A DNA stretch of 63,320 nucleotides, the filler included, from Folioceros fuciformis (lineage: Eukaryota), in NCBI GenBank assembly GCA_049999805.1. It is 8 parts of 8 records of this genome, joined end to end, with 100 filler letters (N's around TTAATTAATTAA, not from the genome) between each part and the next. Parts side by side here need not be neighbours in the genome. Positions count along the whole stretch, not along the records: positions 1 to 16,850 come from JBNGIO010003235.1; 7 more parts are not named here. One strand, 5' to 3'. This document shows, piece after piece, positions 2,549 to 48,514 of this stretch. How positions within the stretch are numbered: position 1 is the first letter of the stretch; each line of letters begins with the position of its first letter. A program made the translations under genes and the position numbers. Under the pieces are notes generated by a model. It had not been told where the DNA came from. It did not search any database and saw only the letters and a list, made by a program, of their open reading frames with translations.

Positions 2549-3395
2549 TGTGAAGGAAAATATTGTACCCGAGGGTACTGCGAGGTCCACACAAACCCTC
2601 TATGCCGTTGTAGCCGTAGGATTCGCTCCCAAGGGAATGATTTGAGCCAAATAACACAAGTTTCTTCTAAAAGTCGGTTCTAACCTAAGTTCATGCTTCA
2701 CCTACCCCTAGTTCCTCTACCTACAGGTTCCACTACCACTACCCTCTAGTGGCCTGGCTTCCACATCCCAACTTTACAACTCCCAAACTAGTTCCACCAC
2801 CGAGGTAAGGGTCTCTACAACTATTGGTTCTTCTACGACGGGTAGGGGCCTCCACAATCGGTAGCAGGTTCCACTTCCAGGGTGGGTCCCACCTCAGATT
2901 CCTAATTAACACATGTCGTTTCATATATTTCCCGGGTTTTGCTCGGGGTTTCCAAGTAGCAAGTCGAGGTTACTTACACCCCACAGGAACACACTCAAAC
3001 AATCTTGCTCCACAGGTGTTCGCACTCCACGCCAACATCCGCACAGTGCTTCAACACATACCCAGTCCGACCATACAGATTTACCTCGCGGTCGCCCTCA
3101 CTCCCAGTGACCGTTGCACTCCTTCAGCAGTCTTTGGACTTAGAACAATACTCCCGCAACTCACGTCCTCACAGCACAACTAGACCGCGTCCGTTCATAC
3201 AGACACCTTCATAACCACACTTAGCAACCACAACTCCTCAGACAGTTTTCTCACGGCGTCTCTTACCACAGATTCAGCAACATCTCCAAACACACTTACA
3301 AAGATCCTTCAGTATCTCCTCCATGACTTCATCACCACTCCAGCCCTCTCTTAGACACACAATGTTCACAACACGCTCACTCGCAGGCAATAGTT

Positions 3396-4050
3396 CGGGA
3401 AGTAAGGGAAGAAGAAACACTCCCTCCTCTCCGCCGTTGGTAGATTCGCCTCCCTCCTTGCAGACACCGCGGTCTCGCTCCTCCCCATCTCAACTCACAC
3501 ACTCATTCGATTCCTCAGCACCTTCTCATTCATCCATCTCTTAATCTCCCACTTACAGCACCACTCACATTGGTGATTAGCAGGTCGGGAAGTAAGGGAA
3601 GGAGAGTCACTCCTTCCACCCCGCAACCAGCGGATTCGCCTCCCTTCCTGCAGGCACCGCAAACTCGTCTCTTCTCTCTCGTTCTCCGCACTCACTCACT
3701 CATACTCTTCACTCGCTCAACTCTCCGACACTCACTTACACCGCCGTTATTAGCTCCAGGTTTACAGCCAACAGTCGGGAAATAAGGGTGGGGCGAGTTC
3801 TCCCTCCACTCCGTGGTTAGCAGATTCATCTCCCTCCCACGACTTCCACCCACAGCCCTTCTCCTCTCAACACACTTCTCCTGTCATTAATTTAAGTGTG
3901 GTCGGGCCGTCAGGGAATAAGGGAAGCGAGTACCACGTCCACTCCGCAGTCGGTGGATTTGTCCTCTTTCGCTCCCACCGCGACACACAACGGGATGGAA
4001 CCGGGAATAGCAGGGAAGTCGCCTTCCACTCGGTGAGGATTCTCCTCCCG
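3396..4050 (-). repeat. Array of ~59-nt two-hairpin repeats with unique spacers inside the giant LTR
   Basis: Units at ~3396, 3586, 3776, 3911 and a divergent one at ~4002; + strand consensus CGGGAA(G/A)TAAG-stem-AC-TCCGC-N5-GCGGA-TTC-G(C/T)CTCCC. Confidence 0.85.
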
Positions 4051-4399
4051 ATTTGTCCTCGAAACCTCCTTGTCGCGGAGCAACGAAACCGCAATGCCAC
4101 CACCCAGAAACGCTGCGCGCACTCGCCTGCCAAGATCTCCCTATCCGGCAGCGGTCGTCGCCAAGCTCCCTCGAGTTTGGAATGTCGATTTTTTTCTACT
4201 TTGTGAGGCGCCAACAAGCCTCTTGTACACGATGGTGGTGGGTCCACAGCCGCCATTAAGTTTGGTCCACGGACAAGACGCGCTCTTAATTACAAGCGGC
4301 ATCAGGTCCAAGAAAAAGCATCACCTCAAGATTCTATAGGATTCCATCCTAGGATGCAATTACTATCGTCTATCTTTATCGCCGCGCTTGCCTTCCATC

Positions 4400-6949
4400 C
4401 GGCCGTCTCACTCTTCCTCCCGCCTGCCAACCTCTGGCTCTCCTCCCTCGCTGTTGGTCATGCAGATCCTCCCAAAGGATCTCCACCTCACCACTGCTGC
4501 TGCTTGACCCTTCCAGTGGCGGCGTAGGTGGGTCCCGTCACGGGGGACTCTTCTTCTTCCGTTGCCTGTTGCTGAGGATTAACACTTGCTCCCATTCAAC
4601 CCACGCTTGTGCCTCCTCCTCCGTCAGCTTTTCCAAGACTGCCTCTAAATAGTAGGGAGGCAGTCCCCACACTCGGCAACAGTGGTAGAAGGACCCCCTG
4701 CGGGTCCTTAGCTGCAAGCAATAGCCCCTTGTTCCTCTTAATCCCACGCACATATACAGTCAATTTTAGCACACGGGCTCCATCCACATAAAGGCCAAGA
4801 ACATAAGTGGCCTCATCCTGATATTGCAACACAATTTGATCCTCCGTTGCAAATGAAGTGCTTACCCCCTCCTCCCGTGGGCTACTCCGGACTGTTTGCC
4901 CTTTGCTTTCCAATGGCACTGGAGGATCTTCCATCCCCCCAGCTGCTGCTCCGTCCTCCTGGTGCGAGTTGCCCTTCCAGACCTGCAAGTTGCAGGCTCC
5001 TCGACGGTTGCTTCTTCCACTACCTTGGTCGAGCTCTCCTCTACGGGCGTGGTCTCTCTCCGACCGATAGCTTCTTCAGCTACTTTCATTGCAGCTCGGC
5101 TACTTGGCCTGGCTCTACCCTTCCCTTTCACTCTGCTTCGGGCTTCGTCCCGTTCCCGCTTGTACCTGTCCGCCAACTTTTGCACTCTCTCCACAGCAGT
5201 CGCTTCCTATTCGTGGGCCTTCAATAATTCTTGTTGCATCTCCTGGTTAGTCCCATGGGCCTCTCTCACTTGAACTAGGATCGACTCCTGTTGCTCCTTC
5301 AGCGTCTGCACCTCCTCTCGAGCTTGGCAGCCTTCCTCCTCTGCTTGCTCCTTGGCCGCGCTCAGGGTCCGCCGGATTTCTTCCAGGTGCTGCCGACTTG
5401 CTTCGGCCTCAACCAATTTCTCCTGTGCTTCTGCCTCCTTCTGCCCTTGCATACTTAACCAGGTCAGTGCCCTGGCAGCCTGGTCCAACATGTCCACTTG
5501 AGCCTGCACCATCGCCGTAGTCAGTCATGGCAAGTCCACTCGCTGTGTCTCAACCCCAGAAGCCATCCTCCTGTCCAAGATCTGCCTTCCTAGCAATGCA
5601 CGAACTCTGTCCAGATCCTCCGCCTGCAGCCTAGTCACCAGAGGGATACCCCTGAAAATTCCTTCTCATCCTGGAAAGGGTTCCTGCTCTTGAACTTGCC
5701 CTAACTCGCCCACCACCTCAGCCGGGCCCGCTTCCACTTTTGGCACCTTCTCCTGAGGTGCCTCTGACTCCTTTTCAGTTTGCTCCTGGACGACCTCCTG
5801 TTGCGCCGACTCGCTCGTTTTCTTGGTGACCCGCCTGCCAATCGTCCTTCTCTTGGCATGAGTCCTTCGGCCTATTCCCGCCTTCCTCTTCCTACTGGTC
5901 GGGGTTTCCTCTTCTGAGCTCTCTGTGGCCCCTGACTCCCAACTGCTGGAGTTGACTTCATCCTTTGGCTCCTCCGGCTTCCACATGTGCAGCAAGGCAA
6001 TGACTTCAAGTTCAGGCTCCTGTTAGCTTGACAATACAAACGAAAGAGGAACGGAGAGATCATGGACGGTTGGGGAGAGGGGGAGGCCAGGTTCTACCTC
6101 TCCTCACTCAGCCTATCATACAAAATCCTTCCCCAAGCGACCCGACTGCTCTTGACCACCTTGTGCAAAAACAACAACATATGGTTAGAGAGGTAGTCCC
6201 GCTTCCGATTCTACAGGAAGCACAGGAGCCACCTCGCCAGCCCCATCAGCTGGGCAATCGCCATTTCTCTGGCCAACCATCTGTTGGCCTCTCCCGATTC
6301 CTGCCTTGAACAAGGCCGCCGCCGCTGCTGCAGTGCTGCGCTTCTTTAGCGACTCGAGGATGAGTCCTCCTTCCTCCTCCTGACTGCGCCCAAACACCTT
6401 CCGCACCAACTCCATGCTCCATTCCTGAGGATTGCCTTGGATTCCGTCCTCCTTTGCTGGGCTCCTCAGTCGCTGAGCGCATTCATGCACCAAGCCAGAA
6501 GCTGCGTGGTTCCAATGCTGGGTCATGAACCCGAGGCCTAGCTCTTCCACCAGCCCTCCGGCTCTTACCCGCTAGTGCTCCATGTTTGGCCAGAAGGCCA
6601 CCTTGACCCTCAGCATAGGAGCTTGCTCCCTCTCTCTGGCCACTTCCGCCGACGCCAACTGCGCAGCGCTTCTCTCCCACTTCATCTCGCCCTGTCTCTT
6701 CTTTGCTCCACCTGACTCCGCTGGTTTGGTCGTCCTCTACGTTGCCTCCGCCTCGCTTAGCCGCTATTGCCCCCGCTTGCTCGTTGCCGAGGTTGCGCTC
6801 TCCGCTCCACTTCCGCTCCCCAACTCCTCAATTGGGCTTCTTTTCGAAATCGCATCTGGACCCTTCTGCCTCTTACTTAGGGTTTTATACTTGTCGGGTC
6901 GTCCTGATTCCGCCACCGCCTAGAGCACTATTGCCGGTTGCCCTTCCAT
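4400..6949 (-). pseudogene. Decayed long ORF of unknown function (charged/coiled-coil) inside the giant LTR
   Basis: Collinear ORF pieces 6185-6550, 5666-5995, 5207-5512, 4862-5194 and 4596-4988; homologous peptides at ~50365-51982 (+), 54381-54830 (-) and 13631-13936 (-); 3' limit approximate. Confidence 0.65.
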
Positions 6950-7570
6950 GACGGTGGTTCACCTTCCACCACCGTTGCTGAGTCACGACATCCCTATTTT
7001 CTAGCCTAAGTCCACAACCTGCCTACTCTAAGGACCATTTCTTATTTCTAATATTTAGGGGGCGAGTCTGCATATATAGACTTCCTAGTGTCCCTTCCAC
7101 TACCAAATGCCAAGGACTACCCAGCCACCCTAGACACCTGGTCCGACTACTGGTTCACCCCAACCCTTCATGGTTCAAGGAGACCTTGGGTATAAATACC
7201 CCTGTCTTATTCTCAACCTAAGCCGTTTCCTTCACACTGTCACAAAAAAATCAAAGTCCACTCAATCTGTCACTCAAAAAGGGGTTTGCGCATATTTTTT
7301 TCCTCTAAAAGAGCCTATGATGTTTGTGACTTCTGGCTGGTGTCAACGTCAGTAACAAAAGAGAGGGAATAACCCCTGAAGGACATCACACTCCGGTCCT
7401 TCCAAGCTTGCTCCTCCTACCTCTCCCAATTCCAAGACCACCAAGTGTCAAGGGATGTGTAATTGGTGTTAGACACTTGGCCATTGGGAACGAGAGTGTA
7501 GGAACAAGCAAGACGATGAGGCCAAATGGGAGCCTACGACAGCTAATACAGTTGTTGTCTCCATAGCTAA

Positions 7571-8452: not shown

Positions 8453-11400
8453 ATGGCAGCGGGAGCGGCTGATTCATCTACATATTGACTTCAAGAGAAA
8501 GGCCGTCTTACCTCTGCAAACTTTGATGCCTAGAGTTTTAGGGTTAGGACAATTCTGGAGGAGAAGCTCTTGATGGATGTGACGGATGGAAGTGTTCCCC
8601 AATGAGTTGCTGGACAGCCCTTTGGCAGGTTGTCCCCTGGTGGCAGCTCTATACCATGGACAATTAAAGATGAATCAAAGTGGAATCATAAAGAAAGAAA
8701 AGCAAAGACAATTCTGATCTCTTTTGTGTCACATGAAATGATCCTACACATCAAGCTAACAAAACATGTACATGAAGTGTGGTTATTATTTTCAAACACC
8801 TACGAAGCTAATCACGTGATGACGGAAGTTGCTGCAACACTTAACTTCCAAAACTTGCACATAAGAGACTGATTTTGTCGAAGCACATGTTGCCAAGTTT
8901 CGAGCTGCAAGAGCTAAGCTTGCTTCGTGTGGTGTTATAATTACTGAGTCCAAGGCAGCCATTCAGTTATTGGCATCTGTCATGCTGTTGCTGTATGGGA
9001 AACAGAGCACCTAAGACTCTATGACTGGATACTGACTAGAGCATCCTGGGCATAAGCCCTGAATGCTGAAATGACTAGATACTGACTGGAGCATCTCGGG
9101 CATAAGCCCTGATGCTGAAGTGCTTGATGATGTCATGTACATGGCCCATGGATGGCCTGCACATGACATGTATGCCATATATGCATGTGTGCCATGTATG
9201 CATGCATATGGAGATGAAGGATGATATGTGATGTATGTGGACATGTGGCAGGTGATGTGTCATGGCGCATGCAACCTATATGCATGGTTGTGCATGAAAG
9301 GCGCGGTGCTATGCCGCATATATAGATAGCAGATTTATATTAGAAGATATTAGAAAATACATAAAAATCATAAATCAAGGAAAGTAGGATTATAAAGTGC
9401 CCACCATCGATACGGGTGGACACTTCATCGAGAACTCCTGGGGGTTTTTGCCTATATATGTAGGCACCCAGCCATGGATTCTCGGATTGTTGATGTTTGT
9501 CTTGTTCCAATAGACAGCCATACTTCGTCCCTGCTGTGTCTTTGTCTCCTAGAGGTTCTTGTGGTTCGTTGCATTGCCAGGTTGGGAGAATTTTCCAGCT
9601 TGATTTCACCATGTTGACGGGTCCCGGGTCTGCCTCTCTTAGGCAAACCTAGTCTCTTTTTGTAGCCTTGCTCTTGGCCATAGGTCAAGGACAAATTAAG
9701 GCTAGGATTGTTGCTCCTGGGCCGAAGGCCAAGGAGATCGCAGGCAGGCGGAAGCTTAGTGACCTAGCTTGGTAGACAGGCTAGGTAGGCATGCAGCTAT
9801 GCGGCTGCTGCGCGACACATCCCTACCACCGAGTTATGAACAGTGGAGCTTTAGCCAACAGGCTGCAGCAATCGTTGTACCAGCCACGGCTAGTACACCT
9901 GCTACAACAAACATGATAGTGCAAAGGTTAGTTGGAGCTTTATTACAAGTGGAGGCTAACAAAAAGCACACGCATAAATCAGGGTTTAATGGAGCAGGTT
10001 CTTCCCACAGACAAACTGATACTGCTTTGTTCTCGGGACGAGGACGAGGACGAGGAGGCTTTGGACGTGGTAGAAGCCAGTCATCCAATTATGGAAACAA
10101 CACTTCTCCTCAAGGTGGGAAGAAGCCAGGCAACTGCAATTACTACAACAAGCCAGGGCATTGGATTAAAGATTGCAGGAAACAGAAAGTAGATGAGGCA
10201 TCAAAGGGAAAGCAACCTAAAGGACATATTGCGAGAGTCTTGATGCCAGGGTTGCTTGTAACTTGTCTTAACTCAGTTGCTCGTGATTCACATCGATGGT
10301 TTCTTGACAATGGAGCATCGAATCACATGTGCTCATCTCGAAAGCACTTTGTTACATATGAACGTGTTCCGACTTGCCACAAATCAGCAGTTTCGTTAGG
10401 AGATGATTTAGAAGTCCCCATCAAGGGTGTTGGAACAATCCAAATTTCCTTGAAGGATGGAGGGACTTCAAGGCTAGAGAATACCTTACATGTACCCTTG
10501 CTTGCTAAAAACTTGGTGAGCACTATGGCACTTGGTAAGACTGGCCTTTATAGAATCACCTTCAAGGGTACCTTGTGTGTGATCTCTAGGCTGAATTCTC
10601 CCTCTAGGGTCATATCTAGGGGTTCTCCCTTGTACGATCTATATCTACTGGATTTTGTTTCCCCGTCTGCATCCAAGCCACACGCAGCAAGAGCGAAGTT
10701 AACAGCAAGTAAGGCTTTTCATTGGCATTGCCGGCTTGGCCACCCCAACTAATATTAAGGCTATGCGAAGGCTACTCAAAGAAAAAAATGGTAACAGGAT
10801 TTACAACATCCGAATTACCTGACTTGGATTTGTGTGTGGCTTGTGTACATGGGAAACAGTCTAAGTCCCATTTTGGTAGTGGTAAGCCTTGCAGACCCAC
10901 AGATGTTCTTGATCTCATCCACATAGACATCTGTGGTCCCATGTCTGTCACCTCATGGGGTGGAGCTCTCGTTACGTTGTTGTATTTGAAGATGATATGT
11001 CTCATTTCACAGTAACATAGCTTCTGCAGCATAAGAGCGAGGTATTTGAGAGTTTTAAAAGGTTCTTAGCTTATGCTGAACGACAAACAGGCAAGCAGTT
11101 GAAGTGCATACGTTCAGACAATGCGAAAGAGTACCTTTCTATAGCTTTTCAGCAGTTTTGTCAGGATAAAGGGATCACTCGACAGTAAAAAATGCGCTAT
11201 CACTCTGACATGAATGGAAGGGCTGAAAGGAGACATTGTACTATATAGGATACTGCTCGTTCCTTACTCTTTCAAAAGAGGCTATCAGTACGATTTTGGG
11301 TAGAAGTAGTGCAAGTGGCTACTTATCTGCAGAATAGGATTGCCATCTCTTCTCTTCGTGGAGTGACACCGTTTGAGGCGTGGACAGGTCTCAAGCCTGA

Positions 11401-19266: not shown

Positions 19267-20321
19267 ATTAACTTTCAAGTTACGTCTGCATCCGGCACAG
19301 CCTTCCACGGTACTGCGCTGACACAAATCTGGCCACGCAAAGCATTACCTTTGCAGCTCTGCACATCTTACTCCTCCCCTCATGTTTTCAAGTAATCTGG
19401 CCAACCTGACCTCACAGCTAAAAGACGGCTTTGAACGCTGTGATGTTCTACAGATGCATTATCAGACAAGTATGGTAGCAGGCAAGCAGCAGTCTTTGTT
19501 GAAAGCGCTCCTCGAAGGAGAATATCACCTGTGGCATCAAAACAAGTCTGTCCTGATTCGCACCCGGCGTGATGGCTACCTTGTTCGTTGCTCATTGCAA
19601 GGCACCAGCAGCTTCTCGAAAATTCGTCGGCCGCTAGACTATCTCATCCACGGTCGTCATTGTGATGCTGGCTCATAGAAACACATACAGTACCTACTAC
19701 TCCATGGCTAATTACAGCCCGTGTAACAATTTTCCGTGCAATTTCTACCACCAATATAAATGTGACGTTGATCATTCTCGATGATCGACCGACATCAAAA
19801 CAAAGGAAATTCTCCACAGTGGATGATATTGTTATGGATACCTTCCTACCTACCTCTATGCTTTTCTCAATTTCTAGATCTTAGATTATCCCTATATTAT
19901 CTAATATTTCATATTAAAACAAATAAAAGATCACAACTTTCAATAGGAAGTAGAGATAGAAACGAGGAGGAGAGGAGGAACAACTTCATAAATGGCAAAA
20001 ACAATTGATATTTATTTACTGTATCATTCAGAGATATCACTGCATATTAACAGACAGAGGTCAGCAACCGTTTGGAAACGATGTGGCGATCGTGAAACGA
20101 ATTTCATAGGCTATCGAGCATCTTGTGAGTCTTCACGCTTCACGATCGAAATCCGGGTGGACAAGCGTGCATGCGCTGGGACGTGAGACGGCTTCAGAGG
20201 ACAATGTTGGCTCCGTTTGAGACGTCTCAAAGAATCATTTGTGTATGTGCCTGGTTCCTCGTGCGTGTGATGTCGCAAGCAGCTGTGCTTAGGGACTGTG
20301 CTTGAGAAGAGCTTCAAGCCC

Positions 20322-22979
20322 ATGGCAAGCGCAACTACGGCCGAAAGCCTCACATACCTTGAACTCCCAGGGCCTACTGAAGACAGGCTGGCGAGGGAGG
20401 AGGCTGACACCAATGTCATGGCCTCTTACTCCACAATCTGGCATAACACAGCCCGAATGCCGGATCGCTATGGTGAGAACTTGTTTGTGGGAGTTTTCCG
20501 CCGGAGCAAGAACGATGAGGTGACAGCGGTGCCGTTCAATCCAGGCAATGTTGCCTACGATGAGGTGACGGGGATCTATTCCAGCAGGATGCCAGCCGCA
20601 AGACTGCCGCGTCGTTTCAATATGGGAATAGTGGAGTGCATTTTCTCCAAGAACCACGACCCGGGCCCGAACTGGTCGCACAGGCGGAAAAGTGTGGCCC
20701 TGGTGGACGGAGTGAAAGGTCTGGAGCTCACCTACGGTAAGATGGAGGAGCGTTCCACTGCTCTGGCCATGGGTTTGCTCGAGCTAGGAGTGGAGCCAGG
20801 GACACACGTGCTTCTGATGTCTCCAAACTCGGTGGAGTTTGTTCTGGTTCTGCTTGCAAGCTTATCTCTGGGAGCAGTGGTTGGCATCGCTAATCCGGAC
20901 TTATCATCGCAAGAGCTCGAGGAGCATGTTGGAAATGCGAAGTTCGCCTTGCTTTTGACTACTGCCGAGGTGGTCTCGAGTTGGCGGCCTTCCTCCGCAT
21001 TCTCCGGCCTCGCGAGGACAGTCTTGATCGGCCCTGACGACCATCTTCATTCTGAGGGGAAGGGAGACCTCCTCCTGTCGCAGCTGTATTCCCCGAATAA
21101 ACCAGGTACAAGCCCGGCTTCACGGATTCATATCCTGTCGGACGATCCCGCGGTGGTGCTCTTTTCCTCTGGTAACACTGGTTTAAGCAAGGGTATTGTC
21201 CTGACGCATCGCAACCTGATCGATTCTGCCACGATCTACAATGAGAATCCGCTCACCCAAGCTTCACCTAGTGATGTGTACGTGTGCGTTGTTCCTCAGT
21301 TTCACATATACGGGCTGGCTGCTGTAACAATCACTCAGCTTGTGAGGGGAAATAAGGTGGTCATCCTCCCCTGTTACAACCTGCAAGGTCTCCTCAGGGC
21401 TGTTGAGCGCTACCATGTGACACACCTGCCGGTGCTGCCCCCAATCCTATTCGACATCCTGAAGAGTGGTGATGAGATATCCAAGTATAGTTTGAGCTCT
21501 TTGACTCAGATCAGCAGCGGGGGAACACCCCTCCAGAAGACCACCATCGAGATTTGTGCTTCGCGGTTTCCCACTGTGAAGTTCATTCAGGTCTGCTGTT
21601 TCCTTGCTGCAGTCCCTTGTCGGTTTTCAGACTGTGCATGACTAGTTCACTCCCTGCACTGACCAAACTACGACCACAACAACTTCTGGTCTACACCGTC
21701 GCTAACTGTTAAACTGGAGTTCTCTTATGCATGGATGCCTGTGAACGAGTCCTCGAGCTTTCCGGCAAGCTTTTTGACTTCGACTGTGGAACGGCAGGGA
21801 TATGGATTGACAGAGACAACTGCCGTTGGAGCACTTTTCCCTGCCACTGATTACAAGACAGAATACTTCGGTTCCGTGGGCGTTCTCGCCTCGAACACAC
21901 AAGCTAGGATTGTCGCAATAGGGAGTGCACCGGTATTTCTGCCTCCATGCCGTCAAGGAGAGCTGTGGTTGCGTTGTCCTGGAACCATGGAAGGTAGAAG
22001 TTGATCCACAGGGTTTGCGTAAGCTTTCGTGCGCTAGCAGGCGCGATGTCCTTCATATCCTTAGAAGAGTTTCACAAAGTTTGCCACATTAACTAGTGTA
22101 CATGTGGGGTGTATTAGTACCATGATGGTGTTCTTGAACTGATGGTTGGGAACATTTGATGCAGGCTACTACAATGATCCTAATGCAACAAACGACGTTC
22201 TGGACAACGATCGATGGTTTCGAACAGGGGATGTCGCCTACTTTAACAACGATGGCTACCTCTTCATAGTTGACCCCGTGGGCGAGCTCATTAAGAACAG
22301 CGGCTTTGAGGTGTCTACTTTTTCTTCCTCAAGCCTTTGGACTGGGTCCTTCAACTTATATGATTTGTTGAGAGTGGAGTCCAAGTGGAGTCCAAGTGTC
22401 CCGTAAGTTCTCCTGTTATTTCCTGATGGACAGGTGTCGCCCTCGGAACTTGAAGCCTTGTTGCTAACTCACCCTGAAATCCAGGATGCCGTCGTTCTAC
22501 CGTAAGTTTTTGACACCCACATCGATGCGTTGGGTGACACTCTCAGTTTTGTACCCCTTGGTTGACCCTGTTAGAAATTTGTTGAACGTCGAACAAATCA
22601 CATTTTTGTGTTGTGGGCTTTTGACTTTATGAATGCAGATACCCTGATAAAACCGTCGGCGAGCTGCCTATGGCTTTCGTTGTTCGCTTCCCTGGGAGCA
22701 CCTTGACTGAAGAGGATGTGAAGAGCTACACTGCAGACGAGGTCATTTCAGATCCATTAGTCATAATGCCTTCAGAACTTCTATGCTCTAAACCTTCACA
22801 CTGTGCTCGCTGGAGCTTATCGTGTGCCTGTAATAACTTTCTGGCAGACTGCTTCGTACAAGAAAGTTCGAAAAGTGGCGTTCATTGACAACATACCAAA
22901 ACTGGCTTCAGGTAAAATCTTGCGGAAGAAGCTTATCGCCGAGGCGGTACGAGCCGGTTCCATAGCAGCAAAGCTTTAA
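20322..22979 (+). CDS. 4-coumarate:CoA ligase-like acyl-activating enzyme with peroxisomal PTS1 (AKL); exons 20322-21590, 21798-21993, 22165-22310, 22434-22501, 22639-22741, 22848-22979
   Basis: [56 protein letters not shown] introns giving a continuous frame; C-terminal AKL*. Confidence 0.9.
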
Positions 22980-23620
22980 GTATTGCCGCCCACATTTAGC
23001 TTGAGCCATTTAAATTTGCCCAATGTTGAATGGCAAGATTACAGGTTAGAGTTAGAGAGATGAACTGTAATACGAGAGAGAAAGTGCCCACTAGTGTTTT
23101 GGGAGCGATTGTGAGAACTATGCACATCTTTAAAGCATATTTTCCAAACGGTGATCATGAAGCTCGACAAATCTCGAACTATTTTTCAATCACCAACGCT
23201 GCATAAAGGGCCCAGTGTGGCCGACGTATCCTAGGATGGATCATCAATCCAAGTACGCAATCGGCTTTGTAGCATGCACGAAGTCAGTCGATGAGCTTAA
23301 TTAAGCTAGCGCATGAAGCTCCACCGTGGACAGCTAATCGACCGACAATGCATGCAACGAGTCGTGATAGCAGCAGTCGAAAATTCTGGTGCAAGAAACG
23401 AGTATTAACAAGTAACAATGCATGTGTACGTGGGCGTACATCATAAGAGTCTCGTCTCAACGACAGGGAGACACAGGTGACCTTGTGTGATGTGAAATAA
23501 TAATATCATCGTTTCGATTTGAGACGTCTCGTCCAGACCTGCAGGTGAGACGGGGAGCGTCTCGCATTGCTGCTGGCGCGGCCAGGGCCGCGATCGGATC
23601 GACCTGCCGCACCTGCAACC

Positions 23621-26139
23621 ATGACGACATTGAATGTTATAGCTCCTGGGAGCGGCTATGATGCGGCTACAGGGATCTACTCTAGCAAGCTGTCTGCGGT
23701 GGCGCTGCCGGATGATGCAGAGCTGGGATTGGTGGACTACCTTTTTGCAACCTGCGCCGGCCGGGCGCCAAGAGACAAGCTGGCCGTGGTGGACGCGGGC
23801 TACGGGACGCAGGCCACCTACCAAGAGCTGGAGGAGAGGGTGCGGGAGTCTGCGCTGCTGCTGGCGGAGCTGGGAGTTGCCAAGGGCCGCCAAGTGCTCA
23901 TCGCATGCCACAACTGCCTTGAGCTCGTTGAGATCTTGTTCGCTTGTCTGCAGTTAGGCGCCGTCGTCATCCCTGTCCCTTACCCGGACTACCTGCGGGT
24001 GGCGCCTGCCTTGGAGAACGATCTGTTGCATTGCAATGTCCGGGACCCCGTCTTGTTTGTCACCAATGACGCAATGGCGTATCTGTTCCGCTGGGACAAC
24101 AACGAGAAGCTTCCCAATCTTCTCTTCGGCGTGAAGACGCTCATCATCGGAGCGCGATCAGCAATGCCAGAGATCCAGGACAGTATGGTGCGGCGATCCG
24201 AGATCGGACCTGAGCAGTTCGTTACATGGTCGGAGCTGCGTGCTCGCGGGCCGGTTGCAAAGCATGGTGAGGAGAGTGGGCGGGCCCGGGAAACTGTGCT
24301 GCAGGATGACGCTGCTGTGGTGGTCATGACTCCGTCTGTTGTAACCGAGAGGACCTCGAACGGGAGAAACGAGTATCGGGACAAGGGAGCTGTTCTGACG
24401 CATCGGAACCTCATTGCGTTTGCCACCATCTACTCTGGTAACCCGCTGAGTGGATCTGCTGAGGATGATGTCTACCTCTGCTGCGTGTCGCTTGGCCATC
24501 TCTATGCGATTGCCGTCTTGATGATCGCGCCGCTTATGCGGGGGGCCACGGTTATCACCTGGAACTTGGACTACGACGCTCAGGTCGGGAAAATGCTTGG
24601 TGCTTTGCTGGATTTGCAGCCGCAGCTCACGCATGTGACTATGTTGCCGTCCACGCTGTACGAGATCGTGGCCAATGAGCGTAAGCTGCAGAACATTGAG
24701 ATCCGGCCTCCATACGAGCTGGTGGACGATTTGAGCAGGTGTGACCTGCCGCCCCTCAGGCAGTTTGGCTGTGGGCCTGCAATTGTGCCGCTGCGGACTA
24801 TACAAGGCTGCGCTCAACGCTTTCCTTCTGGTGGTCATCAGTTCGTACAGGTAGTGCCTCCCCTCCCTTTGTAAGGTGTTTAAGATATTTCTTTTGTTCG
24901 TCCTCGTTGTTCTGGGCTAATCTCATTCTACACGCGAACATTCCTGATCCAAGAAATGTCAGCAGGGTTATGGTTTGATTGAGACAACTCTCCTGGGAAC
25001 AACATTCCCTGCCGGCGTTCACTACAAGCCAGAGTATCTCGGATCTGTCGGCCTGCTTTCGATGAACTTCGAAGCCAAGATTGTGAATGTCAAGGCAAAG
25101 CCCAGTGAGATGTCCCCATACTTTGCAGGCGAGCTGTGGTTGCGTGGTCCCGGAATTATGGCAGGTAGAGATTTAAACTTTCCTCCAATTTTTTCCCCTC
25201 CTTGCTTGCTAATCATTCCATGCTGTATCGGTAGCTGAAGAGGACACTATGATGATATGCTTCTCAGCACCTATAGTTGCTAATCCATGGAATTTTTCTT
25301 CGACAGGCTACTTGAACAATTCCACGGTAAACGTCGATGCTCGGGACGCCGACGGCTGGCTCCATACCGGGGATCTTGGCTACTTCAATAAGGATGGCTA
25401 CCTCTACATTGTCGGCCGCATTAAAGAGATCGTCAATTGCAACGGTTTTCCGGTGAGTATTTTTGAACCAGTTGCAGATTCCGTGGATTTAACGAGATTC
25501 TTTACCTGTCCCTTGCAACTAGGTCTACACAACAATTTTCATGGGTGGCACTTTTGTCACTGTAGGTTTCACTTGACGAGCTGGAGGAAGTGCTGTGGCA
25601 CAGTCCTGATGTCGTCAATTGTGCCGTCATAAGGTGCTGACTCGTTCCCCGACTTTTGCCTACAGTTCACTATTATGCATATTCCAGAACCATCTTAGAA
25701 TCTAAAGTACTTGTAAACTTCCCGATTGTCATAGTGAAACCAAGCTAATAGAGCTCTTGATGTATGCAGCTACCCTGATGAAAGGAAAGTGGAGGCTCCG
25801 CTAGTCTTTATCGAAACTTTGACTCCAAACCTAAACTACAATGGTGTGTCGTGGTTAGAAGGTGATCAAATCGATTACATTAAGGAACGCGTAAGTTCCC
25901 TACCCCTTCCAAAGTCATTGTTGAGGCGTTTAAACTCCTTCACGTCTTTCAACTTGCTCTTTCCACCTACCCTTCCCAATTGATAGGTAGCGAGCTTCAA
26001 GGGACTTGGCCAAGCAGCGCAAGTTTCAAAGTTTCCAACTCTTCCTCAGGGGAAAGGCCTTCGAAGGGCTTTCACCAGTTTTGCACAGCATACGAAAGTC
26101 TTGCACAAGGGTCCTAAGCACTTGATGCTGGAAGCTTAA
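23621..26139 (+). CDS. Divergent tandem 4CL-like paralogue; exons 23621-24850, 24966-25164, 25307-25452, 25566-25633, 25770-25890, 25987-26139
   Basis: Same intron positions as the upstream gene; QGYGLIET, GELWLRGPGIMAGY, WLHTGDLGYF, IVGRIKE; P-loop degenerate; no PTS1. Confidence 0.85.
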
Positions 26140-29750: not shown

Positions 29751-29962
29751 AGTTACAAGCTAGACATAAAGGGGGTTAGGCCGCTTTCTTGGCGTTTCGC
29801 GTTGCGGTTGTTCCCTTGCCACGGGGTTAGATGGACTTCCTTTTTTCTTTTTATAAAGTCTTAACGTTCTCGCTCGGAAAGGTTCCATCAGTTCGGACTT
29901 GCATCGTGCCGGGAGACATGAAACTCGAGGAAAGCAAAAAGACTGTGTCTTAGTGCAGGTGC

Positions 29963-32020
29963 ATGCGGAGATGGGCAGCATGGGCCCAGCTGGAGCGTTG
30001 GAGCTGGGTTGTGTGTTCAGGCTTGCCTGCACAGGCTTGGAGCATTCCTCTGCCCTCCTTGGCTTCCTGGAGTGTCGCACTTCATTCACACGGCCTCTTG
30101 GGGCAACGGCTTCTCTGGACTACGAAAACATGGACTCCTGGCATCGCAGGTCTTGCGGGCACAGGTTGCGAAATGCTGGCTTCTACATGGCCGGATGGTC
30201 CCGGCGTAAGTGCGGGGACTGTGAACAAATTCTGCGAGCGAGGGCACGCTTGTGAGGCTGTTGAGGCTCTGGGAGCTCTGGTGCAGTCTGGATGTCTTGT
30301 CTCGCAGTCTCTTATCTACGCTGTCCTGAGAAACTGTGTCGGTAAGAGGGAGCTTGTTCTGGGTCGCCGGGTGCATGCTCTGGCAGTGCAGCAGGGGTAT
30401 GGATCGGATACGTTCCTGTGCAACCACATCCTCCGAATGTATGCTTTTCTTGGCATGTTGGAGGAGGCCATGCATGTCTTCAGCGTGGTGGCGGAGCCGG
30501 ATGTCTTCATGTGGTCTTCCATGATTTCTGCCCATGTTAAACATGGGCAAGGTGAGCAGGGCATAGCCTTGTATCGTCAGATGCGAAGGTCGGGTATGGA
30601 GCCGGATGGGCATGTGTACGTAGCAGCGTTGCAGGCTTGTGGCAGGGAAGCAGACTTGAGAACTGGGCGACAGGTGCACGTTGATGTCATGGCTTGTGGG
30701 GTTGAGCCTGACTTGTTTGTAGTGAACTGCCTGGTGGACATGTACGCAAAGTGTGGCAGGTTGGATGATGCTAAGAGAGTTTTAGATGGGCTTGGTAGGA
30801 AAGATGCGGTGTCATGGAATGCCATGATAGCAGGATATGCCCAGCAGGGCAGGGGGGAAGAAGCGCTTCATCTGTACAGGACCATGAAGGATGAAGGCGT
30901 GGCTGCACCTACTTCTGTGACGTACGTCAGCCTCCTTCAGGCCTGTGCGAGCGTGGGTGCGGGAGGTTTGGAGGCAGGGAAGGAGCTACATGCTCAGATT
31001 GATGCCGAGGGGCTGCTGGCTGATGCAGTTGTAGGGTGCAGCCTGGTAAACATGTATGCAAAGTGCGGCAGCATCGAGGATGCTCGCGGTGTGTTTGCCC
31101 GACTCGAGCGGAAAACGTTGGTCACTTGGAATGCCATGATGGCGGGATATTGTCAGCAGGGGATGGGCCAGGAAGCTCTTCTCGTTTACCAAGCCATGCG
31201 AAATGAAGGCATTTCTGCTCCAGATTCTACAACATTTGCCTGCCTTCTGCAGGGATGTGCAGATGTAGCAGCTTTGCATCCGGGAAGGTGGCTGCATGTC
31301 CAGATCGAAGAACATGGGCACCATGAAGACCCGTTTGTAGTTATCAGTTTGATAAACATGTATGCAAAGTCTGGGAGCATGGTGGATGCACAACAGGTGT
31401 TTGATGGGTTGCCTGAACCAGACAGTGTCGCCTGGAATGCACTGATTGCAGGTTACACCCGGCAAGGGGACAGTGAAACAGTCTTCCAGCTGCATTGCAG
31501 AATGCAAGAGCAGAGTGTACTGCCCGACAGCGTTACATTTCTCAGCGTTCTCAAAGTATGCAGTCATGCGGGCCTGGTGGACAAGGGGCGAGAGTACTTC
31601 GAGGCAATGAGCCAACACTATGGCATCACTCCAACCACGGATCACTACACATGCATGGTGGACATCCTGGGTCGGGCAGGTCTCCTCCACGAGGCTCTAA
31701 GGGTGGCAAGGAGCATGCCTGTACCCCCCGACACCGCAGTGTGGCACACACTTTTGGGTGCCTGTCAAAAGTGGAGCAACGTGGAGGTGGGACTCCATTC
31801 CTTCAAGGAAGCCCTGAAGCTGCATGACAAGGATGCTGCAGCCTATGTGTTGATGTCCAACATATATCGCAGAGCCCAGATGTGGGAGGAGGCACAGAAG
31901 TTGCAGAGGAGGAGGAAAGCGATCGGGGCATGGAAACAGCCAGGCCAGAGCTGGTGGGTAGGCATAGACGGGCTGGTGCACGTTTTTGTGGTAAGGGAGT
32001 TAACGCCATCTGCACGTTGA
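29963..32020 (+). CDS. PLS-class pentatricopeptide repeat protein with E/E+ extension and no DYW (candidate organellar RNA-editing factor)
   Basis: Repeated LVDMYAKCG..A..VF / VSWNAMIAGY motifs; HYTCMVDILGRAG; YVLMSNIY; KQPGQSW; single intronless ORF of 685 aa. Confidence 0.93.
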   Translation: MRRWAAWAQLERWSWVVCSGLPAQAWSIPLPSLASWSVALHSHGLLGQRLLWTTKTWTPGIAGLAGTGCEMLASTWPDGPGVSAGTVNKFCERGHACEAVEALGALVQSGCLVSQSLIYAVLRNCVGKRELVLGRRVHALAVQQGYGSDTFLCNHILRMYAFLGMLEEAMHVFSVVAEPDVFMWSSMISAHVKHGQGEQGIALYRQMRRSGMEPDGHVYVAALQACGREADLRTGRQVHVDVMACGVEPDLFVVNCLVDMYAKCGRLDDAKRVLDGLGRKDAVSWNAMIAGYAQQGRGEEALHLYRTMKDEGVAAPTSVTYVSLLQACASVGAGGLEAGKELHAQIDAEGLLADAVVGCSLVNMYAKCGSIEDARGVFARLERKTLVTWNAMMAGYCQQGMGQEALLVYQAMRNEGISAPDSTTFACLLQGCADVAALHPGRWLHVQIEEHGHHEDPFVVISLINMYAKSGSMVDAQQVFDGLPEPDSVAWNALIAGYTRQGDSETVFQLHCRMQEQSVLPDSVTFLSVLKVCSHAGLVDKGREYFEAMSQHYGITPTTDHYTCMVDILGRAGLLHEALRVARSMPVPPDTAVWHTLLGACQKWSNVEVGLHSFKEALKLHDKDAAAYVLMSNIYRRAQMWEEAQKLQRRRKAIGAWKQPGQSWWVGIDGLVHVFVVRELTPSAR

Positions 32021-32922
32021 ACCATGAAGGGACACATGCAAGGATTTTATTCCCCTCACGACTTCAACATCACTAACCTGAAAGCGCACAATGTAAGGCT
32101 TCTGGTTTTGTTTTTTGCTCCCTCTCGACTCCAACACCGAAAACCTGAAAGACTACATGTAACGATGAGCCAGGTTGTTCTCCACACCGCTCCACCAGTA
32201 TATCGTTGCTGTTTCACCACCCACCTCCCATGACATGCCGTCAGTGTGTTTGTCACAACTCCAATTCATTGTTGTCGGTAGTGCTTGCTAATAGGGATGC
32301 ATTCTTCTGACATGTTCCTTTAGAAAGCCGCGGCAAGGCTTTCTTTCTTTGTCGTCTGAGTACAGTACTTGTCCTGACTAACCAGAAGCAATCTCGTTGA
32401 GATCTCATCACCCATGATCAAAGTTGCCTACTGTGCGGTTTCCCCAATGGGAAGACGGAGATACCGAGTGCTGGTCGTGTGTGGGCTCCAAGCTCGGACT
32501 TCCAACAGCCCCGACTATTCGTTCGGTGCTAAGGGAAACCTATTGCTTGACACAGGGAAAAGCTGTTGTTAGACTATACTGTTCGCAAAAACCCTAAAAC
32601 TTTGTATCACCTTAATTTAACGCAACAGCAACAACAAATGCTAAGCCATCAACAGTCATAAACACCTATGTTTGCCACTGGAACGACAAATTCCTTGTCC
32701 CGAATTATAAAATCCATTTTAATTTTCGAAAATTTTAATTGCCTCTCCCACACCAATTAGTGCTTGAGAAGACAAAATAACGACAATGGATCATTGTTAA
32801 TGCCACTGCCAGCCATATTCTCACTTGCATAATCTCGTTGGATAATAATTTTTTATATTTAAAAAAAAATAAAACTACAGTGGTACACATTTAGGGTTTC
32901 TATGCCCTAAGTGTGCATACAA

Positions 32923-33034
32923 TGGGCATTGTGAGATTCGAACTCACGTCCTCTGGGTGAATAGAAGAAAGAAATAAAAAATAAAAAATGATGCAAATTA
33001 TTTGCCCAGCGTCATACCTCTAGACCAAATGCCC
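32923..33034 (-). tRNA. tRNA-like gene or pseudogene with a 40-nt insertion in the anticodon loop; identity unresolved (Pro-like acceptor/D arm)
   Basis: Acceptor GGGCATT/AATGCCC; D arm GTCTAGAGGTATGAC; anticodon stem CTGGG/CCCAG; T arm GTGAG-TTCGAAT-CTCAC; anticodon loop 47 nt. Confidence 0.7.
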
Positions 33035-33154
33035 TAGTCAACAAATAGTAACAGCAATGTCAACTTCATTTTTCTTTCACTTCCTCTTGTTCGAAAACTT
33101 TGTAATATTTCATGCTGTTTAAGTATCGTTATTTACATACCAAATCCCATGACA

Positions 33155-33570
33155 AAAATCCATCCTTAGTGGACTAATAGAATTCTTCTCCCTTTCCTTC
33201 AACTTTGTCTTCCATATGCATGCAACCTGGTCCTCTCCTATTCAAGTTAATGGCTCAAATCTATCCTTAGTGGACTCTAATAGAATTCTTCTTCTTCAAC
33301 TTTGTCTTACATGTGCAACTTGTCTTCTTCTATTCAAATTAATGGCTCAAATCCATCGTTAGTGGACTCTATTAGAATTCTTCTCTTCTTCTTCAACTTT
33401 GTCTTGCATATGCAACTTGTCTTCTCCTATGCAACTTGTCTTCTCCTATTCAAGTTAATAGCTCTCCTCCTCGTACTTAGTGGACCTTGATAGAATTCTT
33501 CATTCTTCTTCTTCAACTTCGTCTTCCATATGCAACCTAGTCTTCCTCCCTTCAAGCTAATGGCTCTACT
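33155..33570. repeat. Degenerate tandem repeat, ~4 units of ~95-120 bp
   Basis: Recurring TTAGTGGAC..TAGAATTCTT..CTTCAACTTTGTCTT..ATGCAAC..TTCAAGTTAAT. Confidence 0.8.
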
Positions 33571-34029
33571 CCTCACAAGTATGTCGAAGCCTCTAGGCAA
33601 CTTAGGTGTTTCCAATTTAGTCCTCCTCATCTTAGCATTGGGAACCTTCCCTCTCCACAAGTCTCCTTTGAACCATCTTTGATCTCCACAGCTCACCTTG
33701 TCTCCACCAAGATCCTTGAGCGCCGGGAGAACTTTCACTGCCCAGCTTTTGAACGCATTCCAATTTTCATACTCCATCATTTGTACTGTACGGATTTGTC
33801 GGTCCCATATTTGTTTTAACTTCTAGTATCCCTGGCTCTTACGATTCCCTTTCTCTCCTACCGTTTGTCTGTCATTTGAAGTTCTGCGGGTGATAGGGAA
33901 GCTTCGTCGTCGGAAGATGAAGGACCGCGAAGGCGCGCGGTTGAGCATGCAGATCGGCCATGGATGAGGTGGATGCCCCGTTCAAAAACCGGAAGACGTT
34001 CGTTCTTCCTGATGACGTGGCCCGACGGG

Positions 34030-35950
34030 CCGCGTTCGAACTTCGTTCTCGTGGGGAGACGTGACGCCCGAGGAAAATGACGGCTGTGTCGTGGAGCAGG
34101 CGGAGATGGGCAGCAGGGGCCCAGCTGGAGCGTCGGAGCTGGGCTTGGCGCGTACTGGTACTGGCATTCCCTCCCTGTGCTCAGATTTCCTGCACGGAGT
34201 GTTGCATTTCATTCTCATGGGCTCTTGGGGCAAACGCGGTTTTGGATCTCGTGGAAACGGGGTGCGGGGAAGGCAGTGAGCACAGGCTGCGAGGAAGGGG
34301 AAGTTTTTGTGTGGCTGGTGAGGCTCTGGCAGCCCTGGTGCAGACTGGATGCCTTGTGGAGAGGGAGCTGGTTTCGGGTGGCCGGGTGTAATGGCCTGGT
34401 AGTGGAGACGGGAGTGGGTCGAATGCGATCCTGAGCAACCATGTCCTCGGATGTATGGGGGAGGAAGCCCTGCCTGTGTTGACTGTGGTGGCTGACCCAT
34501 ATGTCTTCATTTGGGCTTGCATGATTTCTGCCCGTGCTTAGCGTGGGGCAAGGCGAGCCTTGTATCGTCAGATGCGGAGGCGGATGGGGATGTGTGTGTG
34601 CGCGTGCAGCATGACAGGGAGACCCTTGTGGCAGGGAAGGAGGTGGATGCTTATGTCATGGCTCGTGGGGTTGAGCCTGACGTGGTTGTTGTGATCGTGA
34701 ATGGTGGACATGTACGCGAGGGGCAGGGGTGGAGAAGCATTTCGTCTCTACAGGTCTACGGAGGAGGAGTGTTCAGCATACCTGTAGGTGTGATGGATTT
34801 AGGTTTGTAGACTTCCCAGGATGCAGGATGGTCGAAGTGTGGTTGCCCGACTCGGTGGGCAGACTTTGGTTGCATGACATTTGTGCGATGTTGGCGGGAT
34901 GCTGCCAGCCAGCTGGGGACGGGCCTACATGCCCTTCTTGTTTACAGAGCCATGGGAGATGGAGGCCTGCTCGGATCGGAGGACAAAAGCTTCATGCAGA
35001 CCTTTTTGTAGCCGTCAGTTTGATGAACGTGTATGCCAAGTGTGGGAACGTGATGGATGCACAGCAGGTGTTTGAAGGATTGCCTGAACCAGACAGTGTC
35101 GCTTGGGACGCTGATTGTAGGAGACGTCCGGCACGGGACACTGAAGTGGTCTTAACCCTGCTTTGCAGAATGCAAGCGCAGGGGATACAGCCGGAAACAT
35201 CACTTTTCTCAGCGTTCTGAAACTATGCAGTCATGCAGGCCGGTTGCAAGGGGCGCGAGAGTACTTGGAGGCAACGAGCCAAGCCGCTAACGATGGTATC
35301 ACTCCCACCAGGGAGAACTATACCTGTATGGTCGGGCTGGCCACCTTCACGAGGGTTTAGGGGTGGCAAGGAGCATGCCTGTACTCCCTGACACCGCTGT
35401 CTGCCATACACTTTTGGGTGCCTGTTGAAAGTGGAGCAACGTGGATGGAGGCGGGACGCCATTCCTTGAACGAAGCTCTGAGGCAGCATGACAAGGATGC
35501 TCAGAGCCCAGATGTGGGAGGAGGCACACAAGTTGCATAGGAGAAGACGAGGAGGACAGGGATCGGGGCATGGAATCAGCCAGCCTGAGGCCAGAGCTGG
35601 TGGGGAGGGCGTAGACAGGCTGGTGCACCCGCAACCTTTTGTGGTAAGGGAGAGATATCTGCCTCCATCTTTCTGCACTTTGAAACCGTGAAGCACACAT
35701 GCAAGGATCGTATTCCCCACCCCACTTCAACATCAAAACCTGAAAGCATACATGCAACGGTGAAACACGTTGCACCCCACACAGCTCCACTGCAATGTTG
35801 TCCCTGTGTGTCCACACGGGGTCCGATTCAATCTCATGTTGTCGGTAGTGCTTTCCTGCTGTGAGCGGGTACGTCGGCATGTGCAAATATGGGTGCATTC
35901 TTGTCACATGTTCCGTTTTAAAGCAACAGCAGAGCGTGCTCTTTTTGTCC
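34030..35950 (+). pseudogene. Decayed tandem duplicate of the PPR gene, including flanks
   Basis: Collinear similarity to ~29880-32340 (e.g. SLMNVYAKCGNVMDAQQVFEGLPEPDSVAW; ITFLSVLKLCSHAG) with many indels and stops. Confidence 0.88.
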
Positions 35951-46908: not shown

Positions 46909-48514
46909 GCATGTACAAGAGGCATGATGGCACCTCACAACGTAGCAAAAACACGACATTCCGAACTCGAGGAAGCCTGGCGATGGCCGCTGCTGGATAG
47001 GGAGATCCGGGCAGGCGAGTGCACGCAATGTTCCTGGGCGGCGACATTGAGGTTGTGTTGCTCTGCAACGATGGTTTCGGAGATGAATCGGGAGGAGGAC
47101 CCTCATCAAGTGGAAGGCAACTTCCCTACTTTCTTTGTTATTTTCCGTTGTGTGTGGCAGAAGGAGGAAGAGGGGATGAATCCGCCGGCTGCGGAGCGGA
47201 AGTGGACATCTGTTTCCCTTATTCCCTGGCGCTTCAACTGTCCTTTAATCACTGAGAGGAGAAGAGAGTCAAGAAGGAGAGTGAGTCGAGTGTGGGAAGA
47301 AGATAAGAGGGTGAGTGAGAAGGAAGCAGAAGAGAAGTGAGTATGTGAGTTGAGGTGAGAGGGATTGGAACTGTGGTAAGTGTAGAGAGGCAGGCGAATC
47401 CGCCGACTACAGAGTGGAGGGAGCATTTGTCCTTCCCTTACTTTCTAACCTGCTAACCGTGAGTGAGAATGTTGTGAGGTTGTGTGGAGAAAATGGGTGG
47501 TGATGAAGTCGTGGAGCAGACCCTGAAGGGGCTGGGTGTGTGTGATAATGTCGTTGAGTCTGTGAGGAGAGGCGCCGTGAGAGACAGTTCGGGGAGTGTT
47601 GATGTGAGTGGTGCTGTGTTGTGTGGTAACCGGGTGCGCGCGTGTATTGGGGTGATCGCGAGTGCGTGCGCTGGAAATGTGGTGCGATTGAGAGAGCGTT
47701 ATGTCAGTGGTGAGGCTGCTGGAAGCACACTGAAGAAACTTTGGGTAAGTGTGGAAGGGGGTCGAGAGAGTTAGGCCTGCGAAATGACCAAGGCTTTGTC
47801 TAAGAGTCGTGGTTGATGAAGGGTTGTGAGAGGTACTTGTACACTGGAAAGGGACGTGTGCTGAGTGTGTTGTGGGGGTGGAATGTGAGGAGAACTGACT
47901 AGAGTTGGTAGAGGGAGAGAGTGTTGAGCGACGGCGGCAAGGTCGCGACGGTCGCTAGGGTGAGGGCGACCGTGAGAGTCATCGGCACGGCAATATCTGG
48001 CTTGTGTCGGAGTGCTGAGTGAGTGTTGGCGTGGAGTGTGAATGTCTGCAAAGTGGGAGTATCTAAGTGTGTTTGTGTGGGGTGTAAGTAACCCCAAATC
48101 GCCCCTCAGAAACTACGAGGGGAACCCGCGGAGAAATATTTGAACCACGAGTATTAGTTAGAAGCTGGAGGTGGGACCCACCCCGGTAGTGGAATCGACT
48201 ACTGGTTGTGGAGGCCCCACCGGTAGTTGGAAGGTCGGTAGTTGTAGATACCCCTACCTCAGTAGCTGAGTGAGTCTTGGGGGGTTGTAGGTTTGGGCTG
48301 AGGTAGTTAAGCCACCTGAGGATAGTGGTAGGGGAACTTGTAGGTAGTAGAACCGGAGGTAGGTAAGACCCGACCAAGGTAGAGACCGACTTTTAGAAGA
48401 AACCTGTGTTATTTGACACAAATCATTCCCTTGGGATCGAATCCCACTGCTATAACGACATAGAGGGTTTGTGTGGACCTCGCGGTACCCCCGGGTACAA
48501 TATTTTCCTCCACA
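46909..48514 (+). mobile_element. 3' part of a giant-family Gypsy LTR abutting the RNase H/integrase junction of a Gypsy pol
   Basis: Ends GGGTACAATATTTTCCTCCACA; followed directly by (N)ADYISRLQ..EDEFPDE rather than a PBS. Confidence 0.85.

Follow-up and report, generated by a model that had tools for sequence, protein, structure and literature searches.

An apparently undescribed structured RNA repeat in the long LTR of an Athila/OTA-like retrotransposon of Folioceros fuciformis

The LTR and its host element

The stretch of DNA analysed, henceforth referred to as the window, comprises 63,320 nucleotides of Folioceros fuciformis and consists of contigs from an 87 Mb assembly (GCA_049999805.1) chained with N spacers. 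Its focal feature is a solo LTR on the minus strand (Table 1). A giant LTR had been proposed in a preliminary description of this DNA, and its boundaries were confirmed by the inverted ends and by the flanking GCTCT on each side. A second solo LTR, bounded by a CCTTT duplication, was identified at G000:C6314:564427-569038, and the family is represented by hundreds of pieces genome-wide; the first look returned 434 candidates for the LTR end (40 scored) and 665 for the LTR ORF (150 scored). Four further pieces of the LTR are located within 46909-56097; the stretch 49996-56097 is a rearranged cluster in which a 5′ part adjoins an inverted 3′ part that in turn faces another 3′ part head to head. 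A MULE/SWIM-type transposase piece was found within an LTR copy (52780-53460), and a sequence of ~42 nt is present in three tandem copies just outside the LTR end (2182-2310).

Table 1 Features of the LTR copies and repeat units in the window.
Feature	Position	Strand	Remarks
Solo LTR, 4,761 bp	2549-7309	minus	inverted ends of ~16 nt; 5-bp target duplication GCTCT on both sides
TATA-like box (inferred promoter)	7070-7079	minus	231 nt from LTR 5′ end
Extra ORF inside LTR	4380-6800 (ends approximate)	minus (sense strand)	broken in the window copy
5′-most variant unit	3998-4064	minus	longer first hairpin; 6-nt last junction strand CUGCUA
Unit 1, three-way junction	3908-3970	minus	decayed
Unit 2	3773-3837	minus	
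Unit 3	3583-3647	minus	best preserved of focal array; outer stem about 3565-3665
Spacer	3480-3555	minus	purine-rich, C-poor (C 3%, G 43%)
Unit 4	3393-3457	minus	second stem with two G-U pairs; first stem decayed
Second LTR copy, 3′ part	46909-48514	plus	units 47070-47151 (variant), 47168-47231, 47386-47450
Integrase piece and polypurine tract	49199-49995	plus	before LTR start at 49996
LTR copy, 5′ part	49996-51982	plus	promoter region and extra ORF
LTR copy, 3′ part, inverted	51980-54825	minus	units 53918-53999 (variant), 53838-53900, 53595-53659
LTR copy, 3′ part	54828-56097	plus	units 54883-54964 (variant), 54982-55045, 55116-55180, 55302-55366

A tRNA-type primer binding site (PBS), which we take to be of the tRNA-Asp type, follows the LTR end at 18 genomic places. 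This reading of the motif agrees with PMC1142308. Of the 32 loci examined, 11, among them the window's own copy, have integrase and a polypurine tract (PPT) immediately 5′ of the LTR start. Together, the PBS at 18 LTR ends and the integrase and PPT before the LTR start in these 11 loci establish that minus is the correct LTR-sense orientation. The pol pieces have the domain order RT-RH-INT, and their nearest named RT-RH relatives are liverwort proteins with 49-65% identity. No added RNase H (aRH) was found in the RH-integrase interval of a 590-aa piece, and the native RH retains its acidic residues as judged by eye; Tat clades devoid of aRH are described for liverworts in the accessible part of PMC10508981. 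The host element is best described as an Athila/OTA-like member of Ty3/gypsy, an assignment made from PBS type, duplication length and domain order and not from a tree of RT, RH and INT. Athila features fitting these three characters are given in the available text of PMC6317226, and the env-less layout of the soybean element Diaspora in that of PMC1142308.

Within the LTR, the motif TATATA was observed at +231 to +237 in eight LTR starts and TATAAAA at +339 to +399 in four starts of other subfamilies; many of the listed LTR starts are short or carry no TATA box. The embedded ORF is, by codon comparison, under purifying selection as a protein, since third codon positions among natural pieces from four copies are two to three times more divergent than first and second positions in all six pairwise comparisons. 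Further pieces of the ORF were recorded at L271:1089-2642 and L058:6623-7330, and pol ends right at the PPT. The ORF gave a weak match to PF20167 (E=1.8e-5, below the cut-off), no relatives at E≤0.001 in one database search and none in viral contigs, and three weak unnamed relatives with no informative Pfam matches. Atlas matches of 0.88-0.91 to plant hypothetical and PMD clusters serve as a lead only. No RNA-binding domain was recognised in the protein by the Pfam, atlas and relative searches. The ORF stop is followed after ~300 nt by the repeat array and then by 0.75-1.2 kb to the LTR end. Inter-unit spacers contain 3-7% C, the spacers at 3670-3745 and 3860-3885 (7% and 4% C) being similar in composition to the one listed in Table 1.

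Several features unrelated to the LTR were also recorded in the window. The region 56799-60019 (minus) and L295:2209-9369 (plus), which equals G000:C5196, belong to a different Ty3/gypsy family with a single open frame of 2,386 codons, encoding in order a protease, a C5 DNA-methyltransferase-like stretch (PF00145, E=2e-4, just under the cut-off), RT, RNase H, integrase and a C-terminal PHD finger. At E≤1e-40 this family was matched 36 times, with six matches sharing 93-95% identity with the window piece, and the presence of a methyltransferase-like domain together with a PHD finger in a young land-plant retrotransposon is a notable combination. A tRNA gene match of 112 nt at 32923-33034 (minus) is longer than the model and probably contains an intron. 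Tandem AMP-binding (4CL-like) genes, and a PPR gene with an E motif followed by a degraded duplicate, occupy 20271-24874 and 29954-35790.

The repeat unit and its fold

The focal array contains five units of ~65 nt. Units 2, 3 and 4, their spacing of 190 nt and their placement on the minus (LTR-sense) strand had been described correctly, as had the further units starting at 47168, 47386, 53595, 53838, 54982, 55116 and 55302 and the four examples of second stems; unit 1 and the 5′-most variant unit of the focal array had been overlooked. Genome-wide, the number of units per LTR ranges from two to six, and at least two units are present in 48 of the 81 LTR 3′ ends fetched. The 30 listed among the remaining 33 are truncated, end at a contig edge or carry an internal deletion. 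At three loci, what looked like additional units close to the LTR end proved to be other hairpins. Five LTR fragments of one subfamily (L222, L224, L227, L228 and L230) have their start roughly 900-1,150 nt short of the LTR end, immediately 3′ of the last unit, which is possibly a hot spot of breakage or insertion.

Each unit reads as a 6-bp closing stem, the junction strand CGAA, hairpin 1, GU, hairpin 2 and CUUA. The conserved GAA of the first junction strand had been recognised earlier; the full unpaired strand is CGAA. The whole module consists of a longer outer stem, often a GA/GA loop, and then the closing stem with the three-way junction. The closing stem, which is the best-supported helix, and the outer stem beyond the GA/GA loop had both escaped notice. 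The loop is a 2x2 GA/GA in 36 of 80 units, with G-to-A variants in 23 more, and is lacking in two-unit subfamilies. In the 5′-most units the last junction strand has six nucleotides (CUGCUA, CUACUA or CAGCUA) and not CUUA; CUGCUA occurs in 7 of 26 parsed 5′-most units, two of the 26 being visibly misparsed, and CAGCUA is the strand of the 5′ unit throughout one subfamily. In unit 3 the predicted helix probabilities are 0.99, 0.98 and 1.0.

Hairpin loops vary freely and the junction letters CGAA, GU and C..UA are fixed, a conservation that is inflated by the use of these letters in parsing the units. Loop-loop pairing does not differ from shuffled sequences (1.98 versus 1.99), giving no contact between loops I and II. 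Because the loops vary and do not pair with each other, the constraint sits at the junction. Dimerisation through kissing loops finds no support in these variable loops, a 4-nt self-complementary run being present in only 27 and 22 of 124 loops. The outer stem is unit-specific: pairing with a unit's own flanks gave -14.75 kcal/mol compared to -12.9 kcal/mol for swapped flanks, none of 5,000 permutations was as good, and flank pairing was stronger on the sense than on the antisense strand in 75 of 80 units. Two other arrangements were considered by eye, one in which the upstream UGAGGG pairs with CCCUUA and one in which the closing stem is displaced by one position; both conflict with the observed pair types. 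A K-turn was rejected by eye for want of a 3-nt bulge at the GA/GA loop, and permuted HDV or pistol folds, compared by eye with their layouts, for want of a pseudoknot partner. The downstream complementarity that would form a pseudoknot with loop 1 is accounted for by the outer stem.

Conservation of pairing on the LTR-sense strand

The first parse yielded 84 units; four misparsed ones were dropped to leave 80 for the pair tally, and 81 were included in alignment A1. All 80 units have a Watson-Crick pair at the junction-proximal end of the closing stem (A-U in 68, G-C in 12), and over seven tallied positions of the closing stem 110 G-U pairs were counted versus 11 A-C. In A1, 92.3% of 1,437 cells are paired compared to 51-68% in slid registers, and 82 two-sided changes were observed versus 30.9±5.7 in shuffles (0/500). 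Two of five covariation measures were not above shuffles (pairs with a two-sided change, 181/500; further pair types, 65/500), and kinship among units inflates the remaining ones. Compensatory changes across subfamilies occur in all three helices. RNAalifold on the gapped alignment recovered the closing stem and misplaced the hairpins. A held-out set of 37 distinct units outside the training set was taken from the best 43 of 54 model matches, and its 666 cells comprise 500 Watson-Crick, 107 G-U, 18 A-C and 41 other or gapped states. New pair types in this set are C-G at the junction-proximal closing pair and A-U and U-A in hairpin 1. The three-way-junction topology with covarying stems that had been claimed from a few units is thus borne out by compensatory changes that extend to the held-out units. 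Since the stems change letters and yet stay paired, the comparison of copies indicates that the fold is important to the element.

A more inclusive parse yielded 158 units, of which 113 fall into 22 flank-defined classes of at least three. The 330 class-majority states comprise 290 Watson-Crick, 38 G-U, 1 A-C and 1 other, compared to 86 G-U, 49 A-C, 37 other and 18 Watson-Crick among private departures from Watson-Crick states. The classes are related, with one inherited position contributing 15 of the 38 G-U, so that the Fisher p of 1e-5 is overstated; at class level, six positions have G-U and a single one has A-C. The difference between class-level and private patterns reflects selection on one RNA strand followed by neutral decay after insertion. 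The class-level ratio of 38 G-U to 1 A-C points to RNA on the LTR-sense strand, as had been proposed from wobble pairs.

These strand-specific data bear directly on whether the array acts as DNA, through repeated transcription-factor sites or hairpins perfected by template switching, with no RNA function. Hairpins can acquire seemingly compensatory changes when template switching takes place between short inverted repeats, and the core sequence is well conserved, with a mean column identity of 71%. Tandem repeats beside extra ORFs are also common in Retand elements, with function unknown according to the accessible text of PMC11963269. A duplex DNA site, however, is indifferent to pairing within a strand, whereas G-U is kept and A-C avoided at class level on one strand only. 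Moreover, the closing and outer stems covary although they span 50-100 nt around two hairpins. An explanation at the DNA level is therefore considered highly improbable.

Occurrence by chance was addressed with a pairing descriptor, which gave 18 matches in 173,053 bases of 46 LTR loci, all LTR-sense, versus 2 in 519,159 shuffled bases; a reversed control pattern gave 0 matches versus 26 for the true pattern. The repeat is therefore not a chance arrangement. Six false parses were removed to leave 152 units for the energy and hammerhead tests. Energy models assigned all three helices a probability above 0.5 in only 29 of 152 sense folds and 12 antisense folds, the copies being mostly decayed. 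Single units gave shuffle z values of -2.07, -1.53, -1.25, -0.68 and +1.35 on the sense strand, and the best unit had a better z on the antisense strand (-2.95). Overall, the pairing patterns among copies show a strand-specific structured RNA module.

The chance that a peptide repeat encoded on one or the other strand explains the array is next to nil. Two open antisense stretches of 150 and 186 codons do overlap units. Unit spacings modulo 3, however, are evenly split (19, 21 and 23 of 63 spacings in 28 arrays), the focal spacings of 94, 133, 190 and 190 shift the frame at each unit, each of the six frames over the focal array contains 4-14 stops, and no Pfam match was found. The peptide reading that had been named as a refuting case was excluded by the spacings and the stops in all frames. 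Another such case, a known Rfam family, found no match: at the gathering threshold, Rfam 15 detected in the window only a tRNA elsewhere, and at a permissive threshold over the arrays the best matches had E values of 1.8-7.2, none of them relevant.

A pattern scan of viral contigs gave one stretch, a single match with no array, and metagenome contigs gave at least 119, of which the 80 listed were scored. The 81 viral and metagenome loci scored at most 18.8 bits and were single matches without arrays, and are read as chance. In one sequencing run of uncertain type, three contigs less than 90% alike cover the LTR ORF and the integrase-LTR border, and none covers the array; these contigs were given no weight on either side.

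Function of the array and likeness to known systems

The preliminary description had named packaging or dimerisation, translation and self-processing as roles, with no preference among them. Based on the properties above, the favoured reading of the array is that of a multivalent protein-docking site for the export, stability or packaging of the element RNA, which was given about an even chance of being correct. Transcripts from the TATA box near the LTR start would carry the ORF and then the array. Each unit would fold on its own because the spacers almost lack C and cannot pair, its fixed junction letters would form the recognition surface for a protein, and repetition would provide avidity. 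The array would thereby license an awkward RNA, with an ORF of ~2.4 kb and a leader of ~4.5 kb before gag, to leave the nucleus, escape decay or be packaged. The most probable ligand would be the element's own LTR-encoded protein or Gag; a host protein was also considered. Retroviral Rev/RRE, CTE and psi elements provide the model for this export and packaging analogy. A fixed junction combined with free loops, spacers that do not pair and a copy number that varies is more in keeping with a repeated docking site than with a catalytic or kissing element used once. Against docking, a signal inside the LTR would also mark solo-LTR transcripts, which would suit packaging poorly; in one LTR copy (G000:C6135, about 11330-11400) a ~1.4-kb deletion, whatever its age, has removed the array altogether; and the LTR-ORF protein, if it is the ligand, has no recognised RNA-binding domain.

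An alternative reading is that the units are slow or regulated self-cleaving ribozymes, derived from the hammerhead or of a new class, in which a cut made now and then would separate the ORF mRNA from the RNA 3′ of it and could allow gag-pol to be translated independently of a cap. The unit has about 60 nt, the type II hammerhead topology and fixed unpaired junction letters, with YGAA in the position of hammerhead G12-A14; the equivalents of G12, A13 and A14 in 124 short-type units are G in 106, A in 123 and A in 124, counts biased by the parse. The hammerhead core, C3 U4 G5 A6 N7 G8 A9 as defined in the available part of PMC3088659, was absent from 152 of 152 units on both strands, as anticipated in the preliminary description, which had noted the topology without the core. 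Most units have CUUA only, and thus no G8. The CUGCUA of some 5′-most units is close to CUGANGA, whereas CAGCUA characterises the 5′ unit of a whole subfamily. GAA is followed by U-A in 143 of 152 units and not by the A15.1-U16.1 that the hammerhead requires, and the cleavage-site strand is a two-nucleotide GU in place of the single H17 (A, C or U). With no CUGANGA, U-A after GAA, the GU strand and no loop contact, the units are by definition not hammerheads. Natural U15.1-A16.1 and C6 variants nevertheless cleave weakly (PMC3088659, in the portion available), hammerheads occur in retrozyme LTRs according to the accessible texts of PMC4918200 and PMC6765202, and self-cleavage alone induced cap-independent translation in plants as reported in the part of PMC13725137 at hand. 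Efficient cleavage of several units, in turn, would presumably cost the element its spacers and the terminal redundancy on which regeneration of the LTR depends, and the breaks of truncated copies are not clustered at the junction (1 of 21 listed breaks, with contig edges and masked ones excluded). Self-cleavage was accordingly rated as unlikely. The bolder version, also doubtful, is that a new self-cleaving RNA class or a hammerhead with a rebuilt core, arranged in tandem, would uncouple the LTR ORF from gag-pol, or else that array and protein would form a Rev/RRE-like pair.

The position of the array about 300 nt past the ORF stop raises a further reading, in which it would bind eIF4E/4G, in the manner of the Y- or PTE-type elements of plant viruses, as a 3′ enhancer of the LTR-ORF mRNA or aid ribosome entry or re-initiation at gag. 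A start at the 5′ TATA box would leave gag preceded by a leader of several kb that contains a long ORF. Capped Pol II transcripts have less need of a cap-independent enhancer, and the array ends far from gag, 0.75-1.2 kb before the LTR end. The PTEs of plant viruses likewise form three-way junctions (accessible text of PMC10484670), but the units have no G-rich asymmetric bulge, no C-rich junction and no conserved hairpin loop for long-range pairing. A PTE-type 3′ enhancer was rejected on the first two of these grounds, and a role in translation appears improbable, though worth considering.

Whatever its function, the array is a real, apparently undescribed structured RNA repeat, of the kind of cis-acting RNAs of LTR retroelements. 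No structured repeat in an Athila/OTA LTR was found described in full-text literature with few subscription journals covered. Precedents exist for long LTRs that have extra ORFs nearby (PMC3485330) and for arrays of repeats adjacent to such ORFs (PMC11963269); the available parts of these papers give them neither such a structure nor a function, whereas here an exactly defined fold lies beside a selected ORF. Natural compensatory variants in all helices make an RNA of 65-100 nt directly testable. Cleavage, if true, would add a ribozyme class, and binding by the LTR protein, if true, would demonstrate retrovirus-style RNA control in a plant element. The finding ranges over one genome.

The closest known elements are those of the Athila clade of non-chromovirus OTA Ty3/gypsy, with Diaspora of soybean nearest in architecture; they share with the present element a 5-bp duplication, a tRNA-Asp-type PBS a few bases past a long LTR, the order RT-RH-INT without added RNase H between RH and INT, and a pol that terminates near the PPT with no env-like gene after it. 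The LTR here, at ~4.7 kb, differs in itself containing an extra ORF and a structured array, and the available texts of PMC6317226 and PMC1142308 describe no structured repeat for those elements.

Retrozyme LTR hammerheads likewise place a three-helix junction of ~60 nt with a GAA strand and the open stem of type II within an LTR. The present units differ in having no CUGANGA, U-A in place of A-U after GAA, a GU strand and no loop-loop contact, and in occurring in two to six copies per LTR of an autonomous protein-coding element. The retroviral RRE, CTE and psi elements resemble the array, on the docking reading, as structured and partly repeated protein-docking RNAs in a non-coding part of an LTR retroelement, possibly paired with an accessory protein encoded by the element. 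There is no sequence or Rfam similarity to them, and the array lies inside the LTR of a plant element and not after the PBS or in env. Plant-virus PTEs and Y-shaped enhancers likewise set a three-way junction on top of a basal stem containing a purine loop, 3′ of an ORF stop; the loop here is a symmetric GA/GA, the junction is not C-rich, and the units are tandem copies in a retrotransposon. Finally, Retand/Tat arrays are, in the accessible part of PMC11963269, also repeats beside an accessory ORF at the 3′ end of an OTA element. The repeats described here differ from these in lying inside the LTR beside an ORF in sense orientation, with spacers unlike one another and a fold that is conserved beyond sequence.
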